A stretch of 64,000 nucleotides of DNA from an uncultured Lentimicrobiaceae bacterium (GTDB lineage Bacteria; Bacteroidota; Bacteroidia; Bacteroidales; F082): positions 8,892 to 72,891 of the forward strand of contig CAYWBO010000003.1 of assembly GCA_964456625.1 (NCBI GenBank), given 5' to 3'. Positions within the stretch are counted from its first letter, which is position 1; each line of letters opens with the position of its first letter. The position numbers were made by a program, and so were the translations under genes. This document shows, piece by piece, positions 3,769-61,139 of this stretch. Below the pieces are notes generated by a model, which saw only the letters and a program-made list of their open reading frames with translations, ran no database searches and had not been told where the DNA came from.

Positions 3769-4038
3769 ATGGCTCACAAAAAAGGAATGGGTAGTTCCCA
3801 TAACGGACGCGAATCAGAAAGTAAAAGACTGGGTGTGAAAATTTATGGCGGACAAGCCGCTCAAGCCGGGAACATCATTATCAGACAAAGAGGGACAGTT
3901 CACCACCCGGGACTGAACGTTGGAATGGGAAAAGACCATACGCTGTTTGCCTTGGTTGACGGTGTTGTTGAATTCAGAAAGAGAAAAAACAACCGTTCCT
4001 ACGTTAGTGTTATTACTCCCGAAACAGAAGAAAAATAA
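3769..4038 (+). CDS. rpmA: 50S ribosomal protein L27
   Basis: 89 aa containing [10 protein letters not shown]...[10 protein letters not shown], the L27 signature. Confidence 0.95.
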
Positions 4039-4065
4039 AGTACTATACTTCTCATATATATTAAG

Positions 4066-4095
4066 TCCGGCGCAGCCTTGTGCCGGATTTTTTTT
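4066..4095 (+). terminator. Rho-independent terminator after rpmA
   Basis: Hairpin tccggcgca/tgtgccgga followed by T8. Confidence 0.7.
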
Positions 4096-4292
4096 GTTTC
4101 CCCAAAGCGTTCTTTTCCAAAACGTGCCGGATTTTTTATGATTTGAAAATGAAACGCATTTTTCATTCAGAGGGTTTCCAAACCACTTTTAATCTGCCAA
4201 AGGCGGACAAGGATTTTATCCCCAGTGTCTTAAGGCCATGATTATTTCTTTTTGATTTACGACCTGTTTGCAACTCGATAGTCCATCTTTGC

Positions 4293-4317: not shown

Positions 4318-5589
4318 ATGCTTGAACTTCAGAGAATCAGGGAAAATAAAGACTACGTGATTGAACGGCTTGCCGTTAAGAATTTCGACGCCGCACCGTT
4401 GGTTGAAAAAATCATCGAACTGGACCAGGATCGCAGGGCCAAACAGAAGGAACTGGATGATCTTTTGGCAAAATCCAATCAGCTGGCCAAGGAAATTGGA
4501 CAGTATTTCAAATCCGGCGAAAAGGAAAAGGCAGAAGCTACCAAGAAAGAAACGGTAGTCTTGAAAGAGAAAACAAAATCACTGAGTGAGGATCTGGATC
4601 GCGTTGTTGTGGAATTGGATGCCGCGCTGATCGAACTTCCCAACCTGCCGCACGAATCGGTGGCTCCCGGCAAGGGAGAAGACGATAATGAGATTGTTTT
4701 TAGCGAGGGCAAGATTCCGGAATTGGCGAAAGACGCCATTCCCCACTGGGAACTGGCAGAGAAATATCAGATCATTGATTTTAACCTGGGTAGCAAGGTC
4801 ACCGGAGCCGGGTTTCCGTTTTATCGCGGAAAAGGTGCCCGTCTTCAGAGAGCGTTGATCAACTTTTTCCTGGACGAAGCGCTGGAGGCAGGTTATCTCG
4901 AATACCAGCCGCCGCTGCTGATCAATGAAGCTTCAGGTTACGGAACAGGACAGATCCCCGATAAGGAAGGACAGATGTATTATGTCGGTGTCGACAAATT
5001 GTATCTGATTCCCACGGCTGAAGTGCCCATCACTAACATTTACAGAAATGTCATGTTGAAAGAGGATGATTTTCCCATCAAAAATGTGGCTTATTCCAAC
5101 TGCTTTCGCCGTGAAGCTGGTTCCTACGGAAAAGATGTCCGCGGTTTGAACCGTCTGCACCAGTTTGACAAAGTGGAAATTGTGCAGATCCAGCATCCTG
5201 AAAAATCCTATGAGACGTTGGAAGCGATGAAAGAACATGTGGCCGGGTTGCTGCGAAAGCTGGAACTTCCTTTCAGGATCTTAAGACTTTGCGGTGGTGA
5301 CATCAGCTTTACTTCGGCGCTGACATTTGATTTTGAAGTTTATTCAGCAGCTCAGAAACGCTGGCTGGAAGTCAGTTCCGTATCCAATTTCGAAAGCTAT
5401 CAGAGCAACCGCATGAAGCTGCGCTTTAAAGATAATAACGGCAAAACTAATCTGGCACACACATTGAACGGAAGTGCCCTGGCATTACCGCGTGTGGTGG
5501 CTGCCTTGCTCGAAAACAATCAAACCGAAAAAGGCATCCGCATCCCGAAGGCCCTCCAAAACTATACGGGCTTCGAATATATCGATTAG
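4318..5589 (+). CDS. serS: Serine--tRNA ligase
   Basis: 423 aa with an N-terminal coiled-coil arm and a class II core (FRREAGS, GSALA motifs). Confidence 0.95.
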   Translation: MLELQRIRENKDYVIERLAVKNFDAAPLVEKIIELDQDRRAKQKELDDLLAKSNQLAKEIGQYFKSGEKEKAEATKKETVVLKEKTKSLSEDLDRVVVELDAALIELPNLPHESVAPGKGEDDNEIVFSEGKIPELAKDAIPHWELAEKYQIIDFNLGSKVTGAGFPFYRGKGARLQRALINFFLDEALEAGYLEYQPPLLINEASGYGTGQIPDKEGQMYYVGVDKLYLIPTAEVPITNIYRNVMLKEDDFPIKNVAYSNCFRREAGSYGKDVRGLNRLHQFDKVEIVQIQHPEKSYETLEAMKEHVAGLLRKLELPFRILRLCGGDISFTSALTFDFEVYSAAQKRWLEVSSVSNFESYQSNRMKLRFKDNNGKTNLAHTLNGSALALPRVVAALLENNQTEKGIRIPKALQNYTGFEYID

Positions 5590-6418: not shown

Positions 6419-8236
6419 TTGATCTTGAAAGAAGCACCCCCATCTGTAGCCGCTATTGTCAAAAGTCTTCCAGACAGACCGGGCGTTTATCGTTATTACG
6501 ATAAAAGCGGGAAGATCATTTACGTTGGAAAGGCAAAAAATCTTAAGAAACGGGTTTCAAGTTATTTCAACAAAGAGCACGACAGCGGAAAGCTTCGCGT
6601 GTTGGTGAAGAAGATAGCGGATATTCAGTTTATCGTTACCGAAACGGAACTGGACGCTTTGCTGCTGGAAAACAATCTTATCAAGAAATTCCAGCCGCGC
6701 TATAATGTGATGCTCAAGGATGACAAAACCTACCCGTGGCTTTGCATTAAAAAAGAGCCCTTTCCCAGGGTTTTTCCTACCCGGCACGTCATCAACGACG
6801 GATCGGAATATTTCGGGCCTTATGCGTCTGTGAAGATGATGAACACTTTGCTGGACATCATTCGCCAGCTGTATCCGTTACGGACCTGCTCTTTTAATCT
6901 CATCCGGAGGAACATCGAAAAGAAAAAATTCAAAGTCTGTCTTCAGTATCATATCGGGAATTGTCTTGGGCCCTGTGAGGATCTTCAGTCGGAAGAAGAT
7001 TATCTGGAAACACTGGATCAGGTACGCAATCTGATCAAAGGAAATCTGAACAAGGTGATCGATAACCTGAAGAAGATCATGAAGCAATATGCCAAAGATC
7101 TCCAGTTTGAGCGGGCGCAGCAGGTGAAGGAGAAGATAGAGATCCTTGAAAAATACAGAAGCAAATCCGTGATCGTGAACCCACGTATCAATAATGTGGA
7201 TGTAGTCTCTGTCCTGGACGGACAAACCGAGGCATACGTCAATTACCTGAAAGTGGTACAGGGCTCTGTGATGCAATCACATACGGTAGAGGTAAAGAAG
7301 AAGCTGGATGAAACACCCGAGGAAATCCTGTTGCTGGCTATGACGGATCTGCGGCAGCGTTTTGAAAGTACTTCCAAAGAGATCATCCTTCCGTTCAACG
7401 TGGCTTTCCCTTATGAAGATGTCAGGATCACGATACCGCAAAGGGGAGAGAAAAAGCAGCTGCTTGAACTCAGTCAGCGGAATGCGTGGTATTTTAAAAT
7501 GGAGCGGGCCAAGCAGCAGGAACTGGTGGATCCCGAGCGGCACAGCCGGCGGATACTGGAGCGCATGAAAACCGACCTGCGCATGAACGAACTCCCGGTC
7601 ACCATCGAGTGTTTTGATAATTCCAACTTCCAGGGCGCGTATCCGGTGGCTTCCATGGTGCAGTTTGTGAATGCCAAACCCATGAAAAAGGAATACCGCC
7701 ATTTTAACATCAAAACAGTGGAAGGACCCAACGATTTTGCCTCCATGGAAGAGATCATTATGCGGAGGTATGGTCGGTTGTTATCGGAGCAGAAAAGTCT
7801 TCCCAATCTGATCATCGTGGACGGTGGCAAAGGGCAGCTTAGTGCGGCGGTGAAAAGCCTGAAAGAATTGCGGCTGTACGGAAAGATCACCATCATTGGC
7901 ATTGCCAAGAAACTGGAAGAGCTTTATTATCCCAACGATCCGCTACCATTGTATCTTGATAAAAGGTCGGAAACGCTTCGGGTGATTCAGCAGCTGCGGG
8001 ATGAGGCGCATCGATTCGGGATTACCCATCACCGGAAAAGAAGAGACAAGGGGACCCTGAAAACAGAGTTGGATTCCATCAAAGGAATCGGCCCGGAGAC
8101 AGCAGAGAAACTTTTGCGGGAATTTAAATCTGTGAAAAAGATTAAAGAGCTGGACGAAGGCCCCTTAGCTCAGGTTGTGGGAAAGGCCAAGGCTTCAGTA
8201 ATCGTGAAATATTTTAAATCGGAAGAGCGTAAATAA
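6419..8236 (+). CDS. uvrC: Excinuclease ABC subunit C
   Basis: 605 aa with a GIY-YIG N-terminus (GVYRYYD...IYVGKAKNLKKR), a UVR domain and a C-terminal HhH. The start is TTG, 16 nt after a TATATTTG motif (6395-6402). Confidence 0.92.
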   Translation: MILKEAPPSVAAIVKSLPDRPGVYRYYDKSGKIIYVGKAKNLKKRVSSYFNKEHDSGKLRVLVKKIADIQFIVTETELDALLLENNLIKKFQPRYNVMLKDDKTYPWLCIKKEPFPRVFPTRHVINDGSEYFGPYASVKMMNTLLDIIRQLYPLRTCSFNLIRRNIEKKKFKVCLQYHIGNCLGPCEDLQSEEDYLETLDQVRNLIKGNLNKVIDNLKKIMKQYAKDLQFERAQQVKEKIEILEKYRSKSVIVNPRINNVDVVSVLDGQTEAYVNYLKVVQGSVMQSHTVEVKKKLDETPEEILLLAMTDLRQRFESTSKEIILPFNVAFPYEDVRITIPQRGEKKQLLELSQRNAWYFKMERAKQQELVDPERHSRRILERMKTDLRMNELPVTIECFDNSNFQGAYPVASMVQFVNAKPMKKEYRHFNIKTVEGPNDFASMEEIIMRRYGRLLSEQKSLPNLIIVDGGKGQLSAAVKSLKELRLYGKITIIGIAKKLEELYYPNDPLPLYLDKRSETLRVIQQLRDEAHRFGITHHRKRRDKGTLKTELDSIKGIGPETAEKLLREFKSVKKIKELDEGPLAQVVGKAKASVIVKYFKSEERK

Positions 8237-47354: not shown

Positions 47355-47428
47355 TGGGCCCACCAGGACTTGAACCTGGGACCACCTGATTATGAGTCAG
47401 GTGCTCTAACCAACTGAGCTATAGGCCC
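47355..47428 (-). tRNA. Elongator-type tRNA with CAT anticodon (tRNA-Met, or tRNA-Ile2 if lysidine-modified)
   Basis: The reverse complement folds as a canonical cloverleaf: GGGCCTA acceptor, GCTC/GAGC D-stem, CCTGA-CTCATAA-TCAGG anticodon arm, CCAGG-TTCAAGT-CCTGG T-arm. No CCA is encoded. Confidence 0.9.
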
Positions 47429-56115: not shown

Positions 56116-56856
56116 ATGGAAAAATTAGAACTTAACAAAAAGGAAAAACTTGGATTGATCTTTGATTTTATGCAACGGACTATGGTGCATTATGCCCTGT
56201 GGTACCAGGAGGTGAAAGAGAACTTTGGGGCCGAACGGGCCGCCGAAATTATGGACGACGCCTGGCAGAAAAGTTTTTCCATTCAGATGAAAAGGTTGTC
56301 AAAGGTTATGGATTTTGAGCTGGAAGACGGCTTTCCGAAAGCTTTGCTGGAGCTGGATGACAGCAAACTTGACGAACTGCGTGAAGCCGTGGCTGTTAAC
56401 TGGCTGGCTAATGACGGCGTGTGGTTTCAGGCGGTGGAATTTTCGGAAGGCATGACGCCAGCCAAAAAATGCAACGACGCCGCCTGGGGAAAATTCTCTC
56501 CTTATGAAGCGTTGCGGATTAAGAAGATCCTGAATCTTACGGAAAAACCAGGCATTGCCGGATTGAAAAAGGCGATGGCTTTCAGACTGTACGGAACGGT
56601 GAATACCCAGTCGTTTGCCAACGAAACTAAACACAGCATCGATTTCTTTATGAATGAGTGCCGCGTGCAGTCGGCGCGAAAGAGAAAGGGACTGGATGAT
56701 TATCCCTGTAAATCGGGCGGGATTATCGAATACACCACTTTTGCCAAAACCATCGATTCGCGTATTAAAACCCGCATCATCGGCTGTCCGCCGGATGTGC
56801 ATCCGGATAATTGGTACTGTGGATGGCGGTTTTATATAAGTACGAATGATGAATGA
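56116..56856 (+). CDS. Hypothetical protein with a Cys-containing C-terminal region
   Basis: 246 aa and soluble. It lies 30 nt downstream of the zinc-ribbon gene. I cannot assign a family with confidence. Confidence 0.7.
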   Translation: MEKLELNKKEKLGLIFDFMQRTMVHYALWYQEVKENFGAERAAEIMDDAWQKSFSIQMKRLSKVMDFELEDGFPKALLELDDSKLDELREAVAVNWLANDGVWFQAVEFSEGMTPAKKCNDAAWGKFSPYEALRIKKILNLTEKPGIAGLKKAMAFRLYGTVNTQSFANETKHSIDFFMNECRVQSARKRKGLDDYPCKSGGIIEYTTFAKTIDSRIKTRIIGCPPDVHPDNWYCGWRFYISTNDE

Positions 56857-56916
56857 TTATCGATGAAGTTGAAAGTCGGAAGACCGAAACTTATCATGAA
56901 TCGATCAACATTCATC
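56848..56916. other. Long imperfect hairpin spanning the stop codon of the 56116-56856 gene
   Basis: Pairings read directly: GATGAATG 56848-55 with CATTCATC 56909-16; ATCGAT 56859-64 with ATCGAT 56900-05; AAGTT 56866-70 with AACTT 56888-92; TCGG 56876-79 with CCGA 56884-87. Confidence 0.6.
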
Positions 56917-56920
56917 ATTC

Positions 56921-57150
56921 CATCTGCGGCAGGGATTGAAGTGGAAGCTTGCCGAAAGCGCTGCGTATGAAGCTGCCGGCGGGTGGAGGCGACCGGAGGA
57001 AGCCCACGCACCGCATGTAGATACACGCAAGGGCTGAGGCAACTTGAGCGGAAAGCCCGGTTCAGCCGCCCGGAAAAGGTGGCCAGGTGACTGTGTGACG
57101 GGTGACAAAAACGCACGGTGCCAACGGCCAACGCTAACGTCAACAGCCAT
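56921..57150. ncRNA. Candidate structured non-coding RNA or element of unknown family (strand unresolved)
   Basis: The block is about 61% G+C by hand count, lies between convergent genes, contains multiple Watson-Crick helices and has no plausible CDS (see findings). Confidence 0.3.
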
Positions 57151-57162
57151 TCGTTATTCCGA

Positions 57163-58056
57163 TTAGGTGGTTAATTTCTCCTGTAGCGATTTGAAACCTT
57201 CGCCAAGGATCTCGTTGGAGTTGAGTACCGTGACAAAAGCACGCGGGTCGATGTTGTTGATATACGACTGCAAAATGACGGCTTCGCGGCGGTTGACCAC
57301 CGTGAAAATGATCTGTTTTTCCTGCTGGTGATACATGCCGCTGCCGTGGAGCAAAGTGCCGCCGCGGTTAAGGTCGCCCATGATCTTCTTGCCGATTTCC
57401 TCGTATTTGTCGGAGATGATGAGCAGCACTTTGTCGTAGTTCATCCCTTCGAGGAATGTATCGACCACTTTGCCGGTGATGAAGATGACGATGAGTGAGT
57501 ACAGTGGTATTTTCCAGTCTCTGAAGAAAATAAGTCCGAGCAGGACGATGGTGGAATCGACCATGATCATGAGTTGGCCCACGGGAAGGCGCGTGTATTT
57601 ACTGATAATCATGGCGATGATGTCGCTGCCACCGGAGGTGGCTTTGGATTTGAAGATGAGCCCCAGCCCGATACCAAGGAACAGCCCTCCGAAGATGGAA
57701 GAAAGGAGCGCATCACCCACCACAAGCGGTTTATAGCCGTAGAAATACGTGATGCCATCGTTGAAGAATGCCGTGAGGACAAAACCCACAACAGTTTTGA
57801 TTCCAAAACGAGGCCCCAGGATCTTCAGCCCGATGATAGTGAGCGGGATGTCGAATGCGAGTGCCACCATTCCCACCGGTGTGTGAAACAGATAGTGGAT
57901 GATGATGGAAATGCCGTAAACACCACCCGGAACGATTTTGTAAGGGGTGATAAAAAGTACAAAACCTGAGGCCAGAATGAACGACCCCACCACAATAAGG
58001 CTGTAATCGATGAACCACCTTTTGCTGAAGACCTTGTCTTTAATAATGAATGCCAT
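57163..58056 (-). CDS. YitT-family membrane protein (DUF2179 C-terminal domain)
   Basis: 297 aa with five or six TM helices and a C-terminal soluble domain typical of YitT proteins. Confidence 0.85.
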   Translation of the reverse strand: MAFIIKDKVFSKRWFIDYSLIVVGSFILASGFVLFITPYKIVPGGVYGISIIIHYLFHTPVGMVALAFDIPLTIIGLKILGPRFGIKTVVGFVLTAFFNDGITYFYGYKPLVVGDALLSSIFGGLFLGIGLGLIFKSKATSGGSDIIAMIISKYTRLPVGQLMIMVDSTIVLLGLIFFRDWKIPLYSLIVIFITGKVVDTFLEGMNYDKVLLIISDKYEEIGKKIMGDLNRGGTLLHGSGMYHQQEKQIIFTVVNRREAVILQSYINNIDPRAFVTVLNSNEILGEGFKSLQEKLTT

Positions 58057-58287: not shown

Positions 58288-58689
58288 TTATCTATTAGTG
58301 AGCAACTGTTTATTTGTCTGAAGAAATTGGAAAATTTTTGCCGTATTGAACGGGATGTCGTTAACGTTTTTTTCTTCTGCAACTCTGAACACTTGGGTTA
58401 ATGCCTTCTGACGCAAGCAAGTCATTGCAATTTCTTCTGTGTCAAAAGGAATGTCTTTTACTTCTTGTTCTTCGGGTACGGTAAACTGAACCTTGAGCGC
58501 TTTTTGATATTGAGCTTCGGCAGCTATTTTAGCTGTATTGAACGGAATGTCGTTTACATATTGTTCTTCTACGGGAGCAAATGTAGTTTCGGCGAAGTAG
58601 CTTGAGTCAGCTGTGTTTGCACAGGCTGAACCGGAAAGGGCGATGAGTGTGATTGCCAACCCTGCTAAGATATTTTTTATTGTTTTCAT
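58288..58689 (-). CDS. Small secreted protein with three VNDIPFNT repeats (paralogue A)
   Basis: 133 aa with a signal peptide (MKTIKNILAGLAITLIALSGSACA) followed by three ~32-aa repeats centred on V[NK]DIPF[ND]T. Confidence 0.75.
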   Translation of the reverse strand: MKTIKNILAGLAITLIALSGSACANTADSSYFAETTFAPVEEQYVNDIPFNTAKIAAEAQYQKALKVQFTVPEEQEVKDIPFDTEEIAMTCLRQKALTQVFRVAEEKNVNDIPFNTAKIFQFLQTNKQLLTNR

Positions 58690-59098: not shown

Positions 59099-59500
59099 CT
59101 ATTTATTGGTGAGTAAGAGTTGGCTTGTCCGGATAGATTCGAAAACTTTTTCCGTATTAAATGGAATGTCGTTCACGTCTTTATCTTTGGGGACATTGAA
59201 TATCTGGGTCAGGGCTTTATGGCGCAGATAATTCATGGCAATTTTTTCAGTATTAAACGGAATATCGTCTACATCTTTTTCTGCAGGTACGGTGAACTGA
59301 ACCTGGACGGCTTTCTGATACTGAGCTTCGGCAGCTATTTTAGCTGTATTGAACGGAATGTCGTTTACATATTGCTCTTCAATAGGAGCCAATGTGGATT
59401 CGGCGAGGTAGCTTGAATCAGCCGTGTTTGCGATGGCTGAACCGGAAAGGGCGATGAGTGCGATTGCGAGCCCTGCTAAGATATTTTTTATTGTTTTCAT
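59099..59500 (-). CDS. Small secreted protein with three VNDIPFNT repeats (paralogue B)
   Basis: 133 aa, collinear with paralogue A, with the same signal peptide and three repeats. Confidence 0.75.
   Translation of the reverse strand: MKTIKNILAGLAIALIALSGSAIANTADSSYLAESTLAPIEEQYVNDIPFNTAKIAAEAQYQKAVQVQFTVPAEKDVDDIPFNTEKIAMNYLRHKALTQIFNVPKDKDVNDIPFNTEKVFESIRTSQLLLTNK

Positions 59501-61066: not shown

Positions 61067-61139
<73 letters not shown>

Follow-up and report, generated by a model that had tools for sequence, protein, structure and literature searches.

A divergent, enlarged member of the Flavo-1 family as a candidate structured RNA module in an uncultured Lentimicrobiaceae bacterium

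Flavo-1 (Rfam RF01705) was described from 239 members, nearly all of them in Flavobacteria, as a motif whose stems covary and vary in length; its authors judged it probably to be a non-coding RNA without a cis-regulatory or switch role, and assigned it no function (Weinberg et al. 2010, Genome Biol 11:R31; PMC2864571). Here, we propose that a GC-rich hairpin in a 64,000-nt stretch of DNA from an uncultured Lentimicrobiaceae bacterium (contig CAYWBO010000003.1; this whole stretch is called the window, and all coordinates without a locus number are positions in it) is a Flavo-1-class structured RNA module and probably a protein-docking hairpin, a reading to which we give a probability of about 0.6. 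The element lies in the 306-nt spacer between two convergent genes, a DUF6125 gene with its plus-strand stop at 56856 and a YitT/DUF2179 gene with its minus-strand stop at 57163.

In the published alignment and its supplement (PMC2864571), Flavo-1 members reach about 150 nt and form two subtypes, one of which reads GCGUK-A-GGGAUW...AGCCCGACC. As given there, this 'GCGU' subtype is flanked by an outer helix (GCGUG/CACGC or GCGUU/AACGC), has an optional small hairpin in its 3' linker, and ends in CC followed by an A-rich run. The element in the window is built on the same plan, with GCGGC/GCCGC as its outer helix, a plain GGUUCA linker, and CC followed by GGAAAAG. It shares with Flavo-1 the arms GAUWGnAGyGG ... 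ArCGnAWAGC, the helices GGG/CCC, UW/WA and GY/RC, an apical hairpin of variable length (the 'V' of Weinberg et al. 2010), and a Bacteroidota host, the nearest relatives of the flanking genes being found in metagenome-assembled genomes (MAGs) of Bacteroidales, Candidatus Sulfidibacterium and Lentimicrobiaceae; with the 'GCGU' subtype it further shares the 5-bp outer helix and the CC with its A-rich tail. The differences lie in the outer helix (GCGGC/GCCGC against GCGUG/CACGC), in the linker (plain GGUUCA against GACC and a small hairpin), in an 84-nt GC-rich apical domain that is conserved across seven sequences, in a GTGAC repeat tail carried by some members of the window's subfamily, in the lineage (Sulfidibacterium/Lentimicrobiaceae-like as opposed to Flavobacteria), and in copy number (one copy in 64 kb as opposed to tens per Flavobacterium genome). 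Judged from this comparison, the core at 56926-57071 (plus strand) is well supported as a divergent, enlarged Flavo-1 member, and the element is a new variant of a known family, not a new class of RNA.

Intergenic repeats of Proteobacteria offer a second comparison. Enterobacterial repetitive intergenic consensus sequences (ERIC, or intergenic repeat units, IRU) and Correia-type repeats resemble the element as imperfect palindromes in intergenic DNA, about 100-150 nt long and conserved at their ends, which occur in long and short forms through internal insertions and deletions, are distributed patchily between strains, and form RNA hairpins when co-transcribed. They differ in being near-perfect inverted repeats with no sequence similarity to the element, whereas the element has a non-Watson-Crick, purine-rich, strand-specific loop module and apparently a low copy number in its lineage. 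Repetitive extragenic palindromes (REP) and their paired form REPIN, with the associated transposase RAYT, likewise comprise hairpin-forming intergenic repeats with a short conserved motif at the side of the stem and a long persistence in genomes. In contrast to these, no RAYT or other transposase was seen near the element, the position equivalent to GTAG (GnAG) is variable, and its arms are invariant across distant taxa whereas REP sequences are species-specific.

The RNA of the signal recognition particle (SRP, 4.5S) and 6S RNA are also rods of high GC content in genomes richer in AT, their internal loops are likewise conserved, and the apical string CCGGAGGAAGCC of the element loosely recalls the SRP string CCGGAAGGAAGC. 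Unlike them, the element gives no SRP or 6S match in Rfam even at E<=10 and has an apical domain that is dispensable in short forms. Since the element is missing in close strains, a housekeeping RNA of this kind is unlikely. SRP RNA, 6S RNA, tRNA-like RNA, transfer-messenger RNA, known self-cleaving ribozymes, riboswitch aptamers, integron attC sites, a rolling-circle origin with iterons, and the kink-turn were each rejected as identities because Rfam gave no match, defining bases were absent, or the context was wrong.

The conserved core and its match to Flavo-1

From base to tip, the core consists of an outer helix (P1), an invariant internal-loop module, a second helix (P2) and a GC-rich apical extension, and its 3' end is CC. 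Its parts are as follows.

56926..57071, plus strand: conserved core, a Flavo-1-type rod-shaped hairpin, defined by homologues, by our covariance model R1 and by an Rfam Flavo-1 match at 56924-57066
56926..56930, plus strand: 5' strand of P1, GCGGC, pairing with GCCGC at 57065-57069; 5 bp, invariant in the subfamily
56931..56944, plus strand: invariant 5' arm AGGGAUUGAAGUGG, matching the Rfam Flavo-1 consensus ccGAUuGaAGcGGAA and its structure line
56945..56953, plus strand: 5' strand of P2, AAG(C)UUGCC with a bulged C; its partner is GGCAACUU at 57038-57045
56954..57037, plus strand: GC-rich apical extension of the long form, 84 nt, with irregular helices and a terminal hairpin
57046..57064, plus strand: invariant 3' arm GAGCGGAAAGCCCG and linker GUUCA, matching the Rfam consensus AgCGgAaAGCgg
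57065..57071, plus strand: 3' strand of P1, GCCGC, then an invariant CC, defined by comparison; an A-rich run comes next in most members

The Rfam structure line pairs GGG at 56932-34 with CCC at 57056-58, UU at 56936-37 with AA at 57053-54, and GU at 56941-42 with GC at 57048-49, and the rest of the 5' arm is a purine-rich loop. Inspection of the sequences shows that the two arms share a word of roughly the form UUG-N-A-[two paired bases]-G-G/N-A-A. Antiparallel pairing of the arms produces GGG/CCC, UU/AA, a purine 3x3 loop, a 2-bp GY/RC helix and a second purine loop, the internal loops on either side of the 2-bp helix being purine-rich and 3x3 (or 2x2) in size; such a module would form a nearly two-fold symmetric non-Watson-Crick surface. 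At the far end, the apical terminal hairpin pairs GGC at 56988-90 with GCC at 57002-04 around the purine-rich loop GACCGGAGGAA (56991-57001).

The Flavo-1 5' core ccGAUuGaAGcGGAA is found with high posterior probability at 56932-56946 (GGGAUUGAAGUGGAA) and is invariant in all members apart from its n and y positions; the 3' core AgCGgAaAGCgg is found at 57047-57058 (AGCGGAAAGCCC). Within the 3' arm, CGGAAAGCCCGGUUCAGCCGCCC is identical among all full members, and the linker site holds a small hairpin instead in L105, L005 and the Flavo-1 'GCGU' subtype (L numbers are our labels for loci). Default Rfam scans of the window, and a scan of 601 nt at E<=10, returned nothing for this block. In a 171-nt slice (56915-57085), Flavo-1 matched 56924-57066 on the plus strand with 21.6 bits (E 0.014), and in relatives it matched on the element's strand with 38.6 (L099), 37.9 (L088) and 29.4 bits (L084), against a gathering threshold of 42 bits. 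The window's match was listed for the slice only, and not for the 601-nt or whole-window searches; sub-threshold family members with long inserts drop out easily at search filters.

An earlier sequence-only reading had presented positions 56921-57150 as a GC-rich, helix-dense, non-coding block of no family that it could name. It described the composition correctly: the spacer does measure 306 nt, and its hand count of about 141 G+C in 230 nt proves exact (141/230, 61.3%), which is the window's maximum for any 230-nt stretch (mean GC 43.7%, standard deviation 5.7%). The strings that it quoted for its helices are all in place, as are its seven GGA triplets and CAACG-like repeats, and the two overlapping minus-strand open reading frames (ORFs) that cross the block (56832-57143 and 56905-57150), which it considered not protein-like, exist and have no match in Pfam. 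Structure and extent, on the other hand, were mis-drawn. The conserved unit is 56926-57071, and 57107-57150 is not conserved; between the two, a tail of A-rich linker and GTGAC repeats is present in some relatives and reaches 57106 in the window. The whole spacer is not helix-dense, folding no better than shuffles on either strand (z-score -0.77 for plus, -0.10 for minus), and an energy better than that of shuffles was obtained only for the 147-nt core on the plus strand (-61.2 kcal/mol, z -1.84, 11/200 shuffles as good); the minus strand of the core folds no better than shuffles (-48.1 kcal/mol, z +0.48). Likewise, the loops of the element are purine-rich on the plus strand, and the opposite strand would give pyrimidine loops.

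Only one of the five helices drawn in that reading survives comparison with relatives, namely GCGG+GTGG (56979-86) with 57004-14, which fits the comparative structure with a register that slips between sequences (in one register, the window's U-A pair is replaced by C-G in L003; other sequences use the neighbouring one). The pairing of CGGCAG (56927-32) with CTGCCG (56973-78) competes for the bases of the outer helix (56926-30/57065-69); that of GGCTGA (57032-37) with TCAGCC (57062-67) also uses outer-helix bases, and its GGCTGA is lost in L003 and L088. The helix GCCGCC (57065-70)/GGTGGC (57078-83) and the pseudoknot or switch GGTGC (57117-21)/GCACC (57008-12) rely on bases that relatives do not conserve, and the weight laid on the GGA and CAACG repeats finds no support there either. 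The feature itself is real. Homologues and covariation bear out a non-coding, conserved, structured element, and a family can be named, since its arms are those of Flavo-1 at sub-threshold scores (21.6 bits in the window and at most 38.6 in relatives against 42). The Rfam scan that had been recommended as a check misses the element in a default run and yields no confident match, while the sub-threshold Flavo-1 match is present.

Relatives, conservation and covariation

A protein scan anchored on DUF6125, with one genome per species, gave 80 loci with a DUF6125 relative. Just two of them matched the spacer, over about 56923-57075 only: L002, from a Candidatus Sulfidibacterium MAG, and L003, from a Lentimicrobiaceae MAG. 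Scanning metagenomes with a 19-mer of the 3' arm yielded the true relatives L088, L100, L084/L096, L099/L101, L087 and L091, together with chance matches in GC-rich coding DNA. R1, a covariance model made from six long forms, recovered all of these in its scan and added a divergent copy in L005, and look-ups of eight YitT homologues beyond the window's own protein brought one new copy, L119. Homologues are present in ten other distinct loci besides the window, in unrelated gene contexts, and about 45 bases are invariant across these ten.

All members carry the invariant arms GCGGCAGGGAUUGnAGyGG (5') ... ArCGGAAAGCCCGGUUCAGCCGCCC (3'), and the insert between them ranges from a 9-nt loop (L087) up to about 100 nt (window, L088, L100). 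P2 has the window's type of sequence in L099 (UAG(C)UUG/CAACUA) and is swapped for other complementary sequence in L100 (ACCCC/GGGU) and in L084. The apical extension is kept in seven long forms (window, L119, L002, L088, L003, L100, L005); the short forms (L084, L099, L087) lack it or have another sequence in its place. One metagenome, Ga0307440, contains both a minimal form of about 52 nt (L087) and a full form of about 150 nt (L088), which share the A-rich linker, the GTGAC array and a downstream CTTAGA; to judge from its sequence, the form in L087 could have arisen from the long one by a deletion between the latter's two GAAAGC repeats.

As to context, the match in L003 lies 13 nt beyond the YitT stop and 630 nt from DUF6125. 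The element is divergent from AhpC/redoxin genes in L084 and L088, downstream of a FabH-like gene in L100, between AbiEii and GH92 genes in L099, upstream of CorA in L091 and divergent from DUF6125 in L005, and no protein is common to these different contexts. Because the contexts are unrelated and have no protein in common, we do not regard the element as a regulator of either neighbour gene. Nor does it occupy the fixed position upstream of one gene family that marks a riboswitch or 5' cis-regulator; the convergent genes of the window had already led the sequence-only reading to dismiss a 5' riboswitch for either neighbour, and the varied contexts elsewhere agree.

Repeat and model searches found no second copy inside the 64-kb window (Tandem Repeats Finder was also negative), and no other copies in about 900 kb of related loci beyond the fetched homologues; in 136 kb of relatives there was no canonical Flavo-1. 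No match was obtained by BLAST of the element against phage and plasmid collections, and a literature search with strings of its sequence returned unrelated primers only. Three scans of viral contigs gave chance matches in GC-rich coding DNA and one probable relative, L105. This GC-rich copy, at 4010-4137 on the minus strand of an IMG/VR contig, reads GGCGGCAGGGAUUGAAGCGG ... CGAAAGCCCG-AUCCGAAGGA-GCCGCCC; it has a linker hairpin in the style of Flavo-1, scores only 16.9 bits with R1, and sits inside an apparently tightly packed phage-like operon with ORFs overlapping on both strands.

The YitT protein is highly conserved, and for that reason one spacer can be compared finely across strains (YitT identities to the window in brackets).

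Element present: window and the identical contigs L117/L118; L119 (98%); L002 (94%); L003
Element absent: L129 (97%); L001/L120 (95%); L121 (93%); L122 (92%); L124-L128 (89-90%); Ca. S. hydrothermale (84%)

In L001, the matching gene pair, with a DUF6125 protein that is 91% identical, encloses a spacer of about 60 nt without the element. Comparison of filled spacers with empty ones (L001, L120, L129) revealed no target-site duplication or clean insertion boundary, the difference spanning the whole spacer. Where the element is present, its core in the orthologous loci L002, L003 and L119 shows identities of 90, 82 and 91% to that of the window, against 78-89% for flanking coding DNA and about 70% for third codon positions in L119, and compensatory changes are found among the orthologous copies themselves. 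On this evidence the orthologous copies are under purifying selection. Being absent in close strains and conserved with compensatory changes elsewhere, the element is dispensable across strains while its structure is maintained where it is kept.

Covariation was assessed in two alignments. The first (A8) is gap-free, with arms spliced by hand from nine members and five flanked Flavo-1 sequences. In it 99.4% of cells pair and 4/12 pairs have compensatory changes, two among the five pairs of the outer helix, one in UW/WA and one in GY/RC, where the states are C-G in 8, U-A in 4 and U-G in 2 sequences. Its covariation score was reached by 0/500 shuffles, sliding the partners lowered pairing to 30-48%, and the helices of Flavo-1 (3 bp, 2 bp and 2 bp around two internal loops) are present, with covariation in UW/WA and GY/RC. 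The second comprises six long forms with an Rfam-type base and an apex from RNAalifold; 94.3% of its cells are paired, with 12 compensatory pairs and a score that 0/500 shuffles reach. A basal helix proposed by RNAalifold, GGAUUG/CGGUUC with three G-U pairs, does not remain complementary in the Flavo-1 subtypes, and the pairing given by Rfam (GGG/CCC, UU/AA) was therefore used in its place. L005, whose base is misaligned by MAFFT and by the model, was used qualitatively only. We take the homology, a structure with covariation support and the plus-strand preference to be demonstrated.

Proposed role and rival explanations

What might the role of this element be? We favour one at the level of RNA because the invariant bases lie in non-Watson-Crick loops of one strand, the stems covary, and the orthologous copies evolve under purifying selection. 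The element would act when transcribed in the plus sense, whether transcription reads through from DUF6125 or starts at an unmapped promoter of the element. A protein, plausibly dimeric, would then dock on its invariant module, the near two-fold symmetric pair of purine loops being the kind of surface that a dimeric protein would read. As such, the hairpin may serve as a portable module for recognition, stability or processing, and not as a base-pairing regulator or riboswitch. The sub-lineage of the window could have a second protein-binding platform in its single-stranded tail of GUGAC repeats.

Several points weigh against a docking RNA of this kind. The protein partner is pure inference, and the window's Flavo-1 score is well under the gathering threshold. 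Covariation is based on few sequences; A8 leans towards structure because it was spliced by hand from the arms, and the long-form result is supportive, not decisive, because much of its variation comes from the single sequence L100. No recognisable Bacteroidota promoter was found at a fixed distance from the element (a lone sigma-70-like match at 56869-56897 is what chance would give and is not of the Bacteroidota type), and a terminator scan of the element region found no terminator-like site. Flavo-1 is multi-copy, with at least 19 entries on the record NC_009613.1 in two parts of the alignment (PMC2864571). In Flavobacterium psychrophilum its matches fall on either strand relative to transcribed regions, sense or antisense, and many give no transcript (PMC9723704), a placement which argues against a general RNA-level role. 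Finally, the element has been gained or lost between strains whose YitT proteins are 97-98% identical, and this, like the multi-copy state of Flavo-1, fits a repeat or mobile element.

The main rival is a repetitive or mobile element acting at the DNA level, like REP/REPIN, ERIC or miniature inverted-repeat transposable elements (MITEs), in which the hairpin serves as extruded or single-stranded DNA for a transposase or recombinase and the RNA structure is incidental. We consider this unlikely, though it is the most serious of the alternatives. Beyond the multi-copy state, it would account for the identical apical inserts seen at different loci and in different genomes in the Flavo-1 alignment (PMC2864571), for the independence of F. 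psychrophilum matches from transcript orientation (PMC9723704), for presence and absence in one spacer among strains with YitT 89-98% identical, for the occurrence, within a single metagenome sample, of a long form next to a short one with an internal deletion (L088, L087), and for the one relative on an IMG/VR contig (L105). The sequence-only reading had cautioned that many dispersed copies would indicate a simple repeat; this applies in part, at the level of the family, which is multi-copy in Flavobacteria. The window itself has one copy in 64 kb, and the related loci have none apart from the fetched homologues, which speaks against a DNA repeat. Against a DNA repeat also stand the lack of a target-site duplication or clean boundary relative to empty sites, the lack of an adjacent transposase or a protein common to the contexts, and loops that are invariant and purine-rich on one strand only. 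Moreover, the orthologous copies preserve their structure by compensatory changes and are more conserved than coding DNA, a pattern not expected of a decaying insertion. More doubtful still is the option that the Sulfidibacterium/Lentimicrobiaceae subfamily is a stable regulatory RNA in its own right, titrating an RNA-binding protein. The GCGGC outer helix, a conserved apical domain of its own of about 85-95 nt, a purine loop of GGAGGA type and, in part of the clade, a tail of four or five GUGAC at 8-nt spacing could all be read in this way; to our knowledge, the Bacteroidota phylum is without Hfq, ProQ and CsrA. If true, this would offer a first functional lead on the Flavo-1 fold, an orphan for 15 years.

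The shortlist drawn up by the sequence-only reading, of a small RNA, a 3' untranslated region (UTR) element or a repeat-type element, was a sensible one, and its second entry leads to a cis-acting 3'-end element, a terminator or 3'-UTR stabiliser for DUF6125 (plus strand) or YitT (minus strand). REP and ERIC show that an mRNA may gain protection from a stable GC-rich hairpin at its 3' end, and the element does lie between convergent genes and adjoin the YitT stop in four orthologous loci (13 nt in L003). However, other members are found between divergent genes or ahead of genes that are unrelated, the close strains without the element carry ordinary small terminator hairpins, and minus-strand folding is no better than shuffles. 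An intrinsic terminator would be a GC-rich hairpin with a run of U; on the structured strand the run 3' of the hairpin is A-rich. Given the varying contexts, the A-rich sequence after the hairpin and the lack of any terminator-like site, we hold a terminator or 3'-UTR role to be improbable. A separate candidate for a YitT terminator, a hairpin with UUUUUG on the minus strand at 57107-57156, was rejected as weak, its folding being no better than that of shuffles. There is next to no likelihood left for a chance GC-rich stretch or a functionless remnant of a degraded gene, to which the two minus-strand ORFs across the block and the unremarkable folding of the whole spacer might point; it is already contradicted by the roughly 45 invariant bases in ten other loci with unrelated contexts, by stems that covary, by ORFs without a Pfam match, and by insert lengths that vary regardless of reading frame.

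Flavo-1 is among the most abundant bacterial 'sRNA' (small RNA) families in Rfam. The present locus extends the family, below the Rfam threshold, into Sulfidibacterium/Lentimicrobiaceae-like Bacteroidota, and shows that an outer helix, linker and CC tail that are missing from the published Flavo-1 model covary between subfamilies. Together with the symmetric loops, and with the compensatory upkeep of orthologous copies alongside total absence in close strains, this narrows the choice between a functional RNA module and a selfish repeat. The strains with and without the element are a natural comparison.

Tail, flanking sequence and other features of the window

Around the core, the spacer and its neighbourhood contain the following.

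56116..56856, plus strand: DUF6125 family protein gene (Pfam PF19620, E 1e-70)
56844..56920, no strand assigned: AT-rich, long, imperfect hairpin upstream of the element and across the DUF6125 stop codon (inverted repeat in self-BLAST; folding)
57072..57106, plus strand: A-rich linker GGAAAAG, then GTGGC at 57079-83 and GTGAC at 57087-91, 57095-99 and 57102-06 (periods 8, 8, 7)
57107..57162, no strand assigned: non-conserved remainder of the spacer, including the CAACG-like repeats, outside the element (comparison; folding)
57163..58056, minus strand: gene for a YitT-family membrane protein with a DUF2179 domain (Pfam PF02588 and PF10035)

Four or five GTGAC units with 8-nt spacing follow the CC and A-rich linker in the window, L087 (about 752-785) and L088 (about 2293-2335), and a degenerate array does so in L002 (about 3877-3905); L003, L119, L084, L099, L100 and L005 have none. 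In about 950 kb searched, arrays of at least three GTGAC occur only 3' of the element and at one unrelated site in L096, where an (AGTGACT)n tandem repeat at about 7400-7440 (minus strand) lies 5.5 kb away from the Flavo-1-like element of the same contig. Folding of the L087 tail was poorer than that of 198/200 shuffles (z +1.94), which is what a single-stranded platform would show in such a prediction. In L002, the GTGAC array is followed by four TTTTGAGC-like units, again with 8-nt spacing. Past the tail, the CAACG-repeat part (57107-57150) has no counterpart in any of the relatives L002, L003 and L119, and 57107-57162 is no more structured than shuffles on either strand.

Upstream, the hairpin at 56844-56920 is built from GAATGATGAATG...CATTCATCATTC flanking an inner CGG-AAGA-CCG hairpin and folds far better than its shuffles (-28 kcal/mol, z -4.08, 0/200 as good). 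Its left half is also found in L129, which is without the element, and pieces of it (GATGAATGAT.., GTCCGAAG and TTCATCATTCC) are found again in L002, L119 and L129; it is probably the terminator region of the DUF6125 gene. L003 has about 630 nt of extra AT-rich sequence between DUF6125 and the element (4735-5350), with the perfect palindromes GTAGCCCGGGGCTTAAGCCCCGGGCTAC and GTCGGGCTTTCAGCCC and the motif GGCACGCGCTGCAA. The same motif stands upstream of the L088 element (about 2070) and, on its sequence, may belong to another small repeat family.

Elsewhere in the window, two tandem paralogous ORFs of 133 aa without a Pfam match lie on the minus strand at 58288-58689 and 59099-59500, and L003 has one homologue of the two at 6741-7163 (74% and 66% identical). 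The only above-threshold Rfam matches in the window are two tRNA genes, at 47355-47428 (minus strand, 76.2 bits) and 61067-61139 (plus strand, 65.5 bits).

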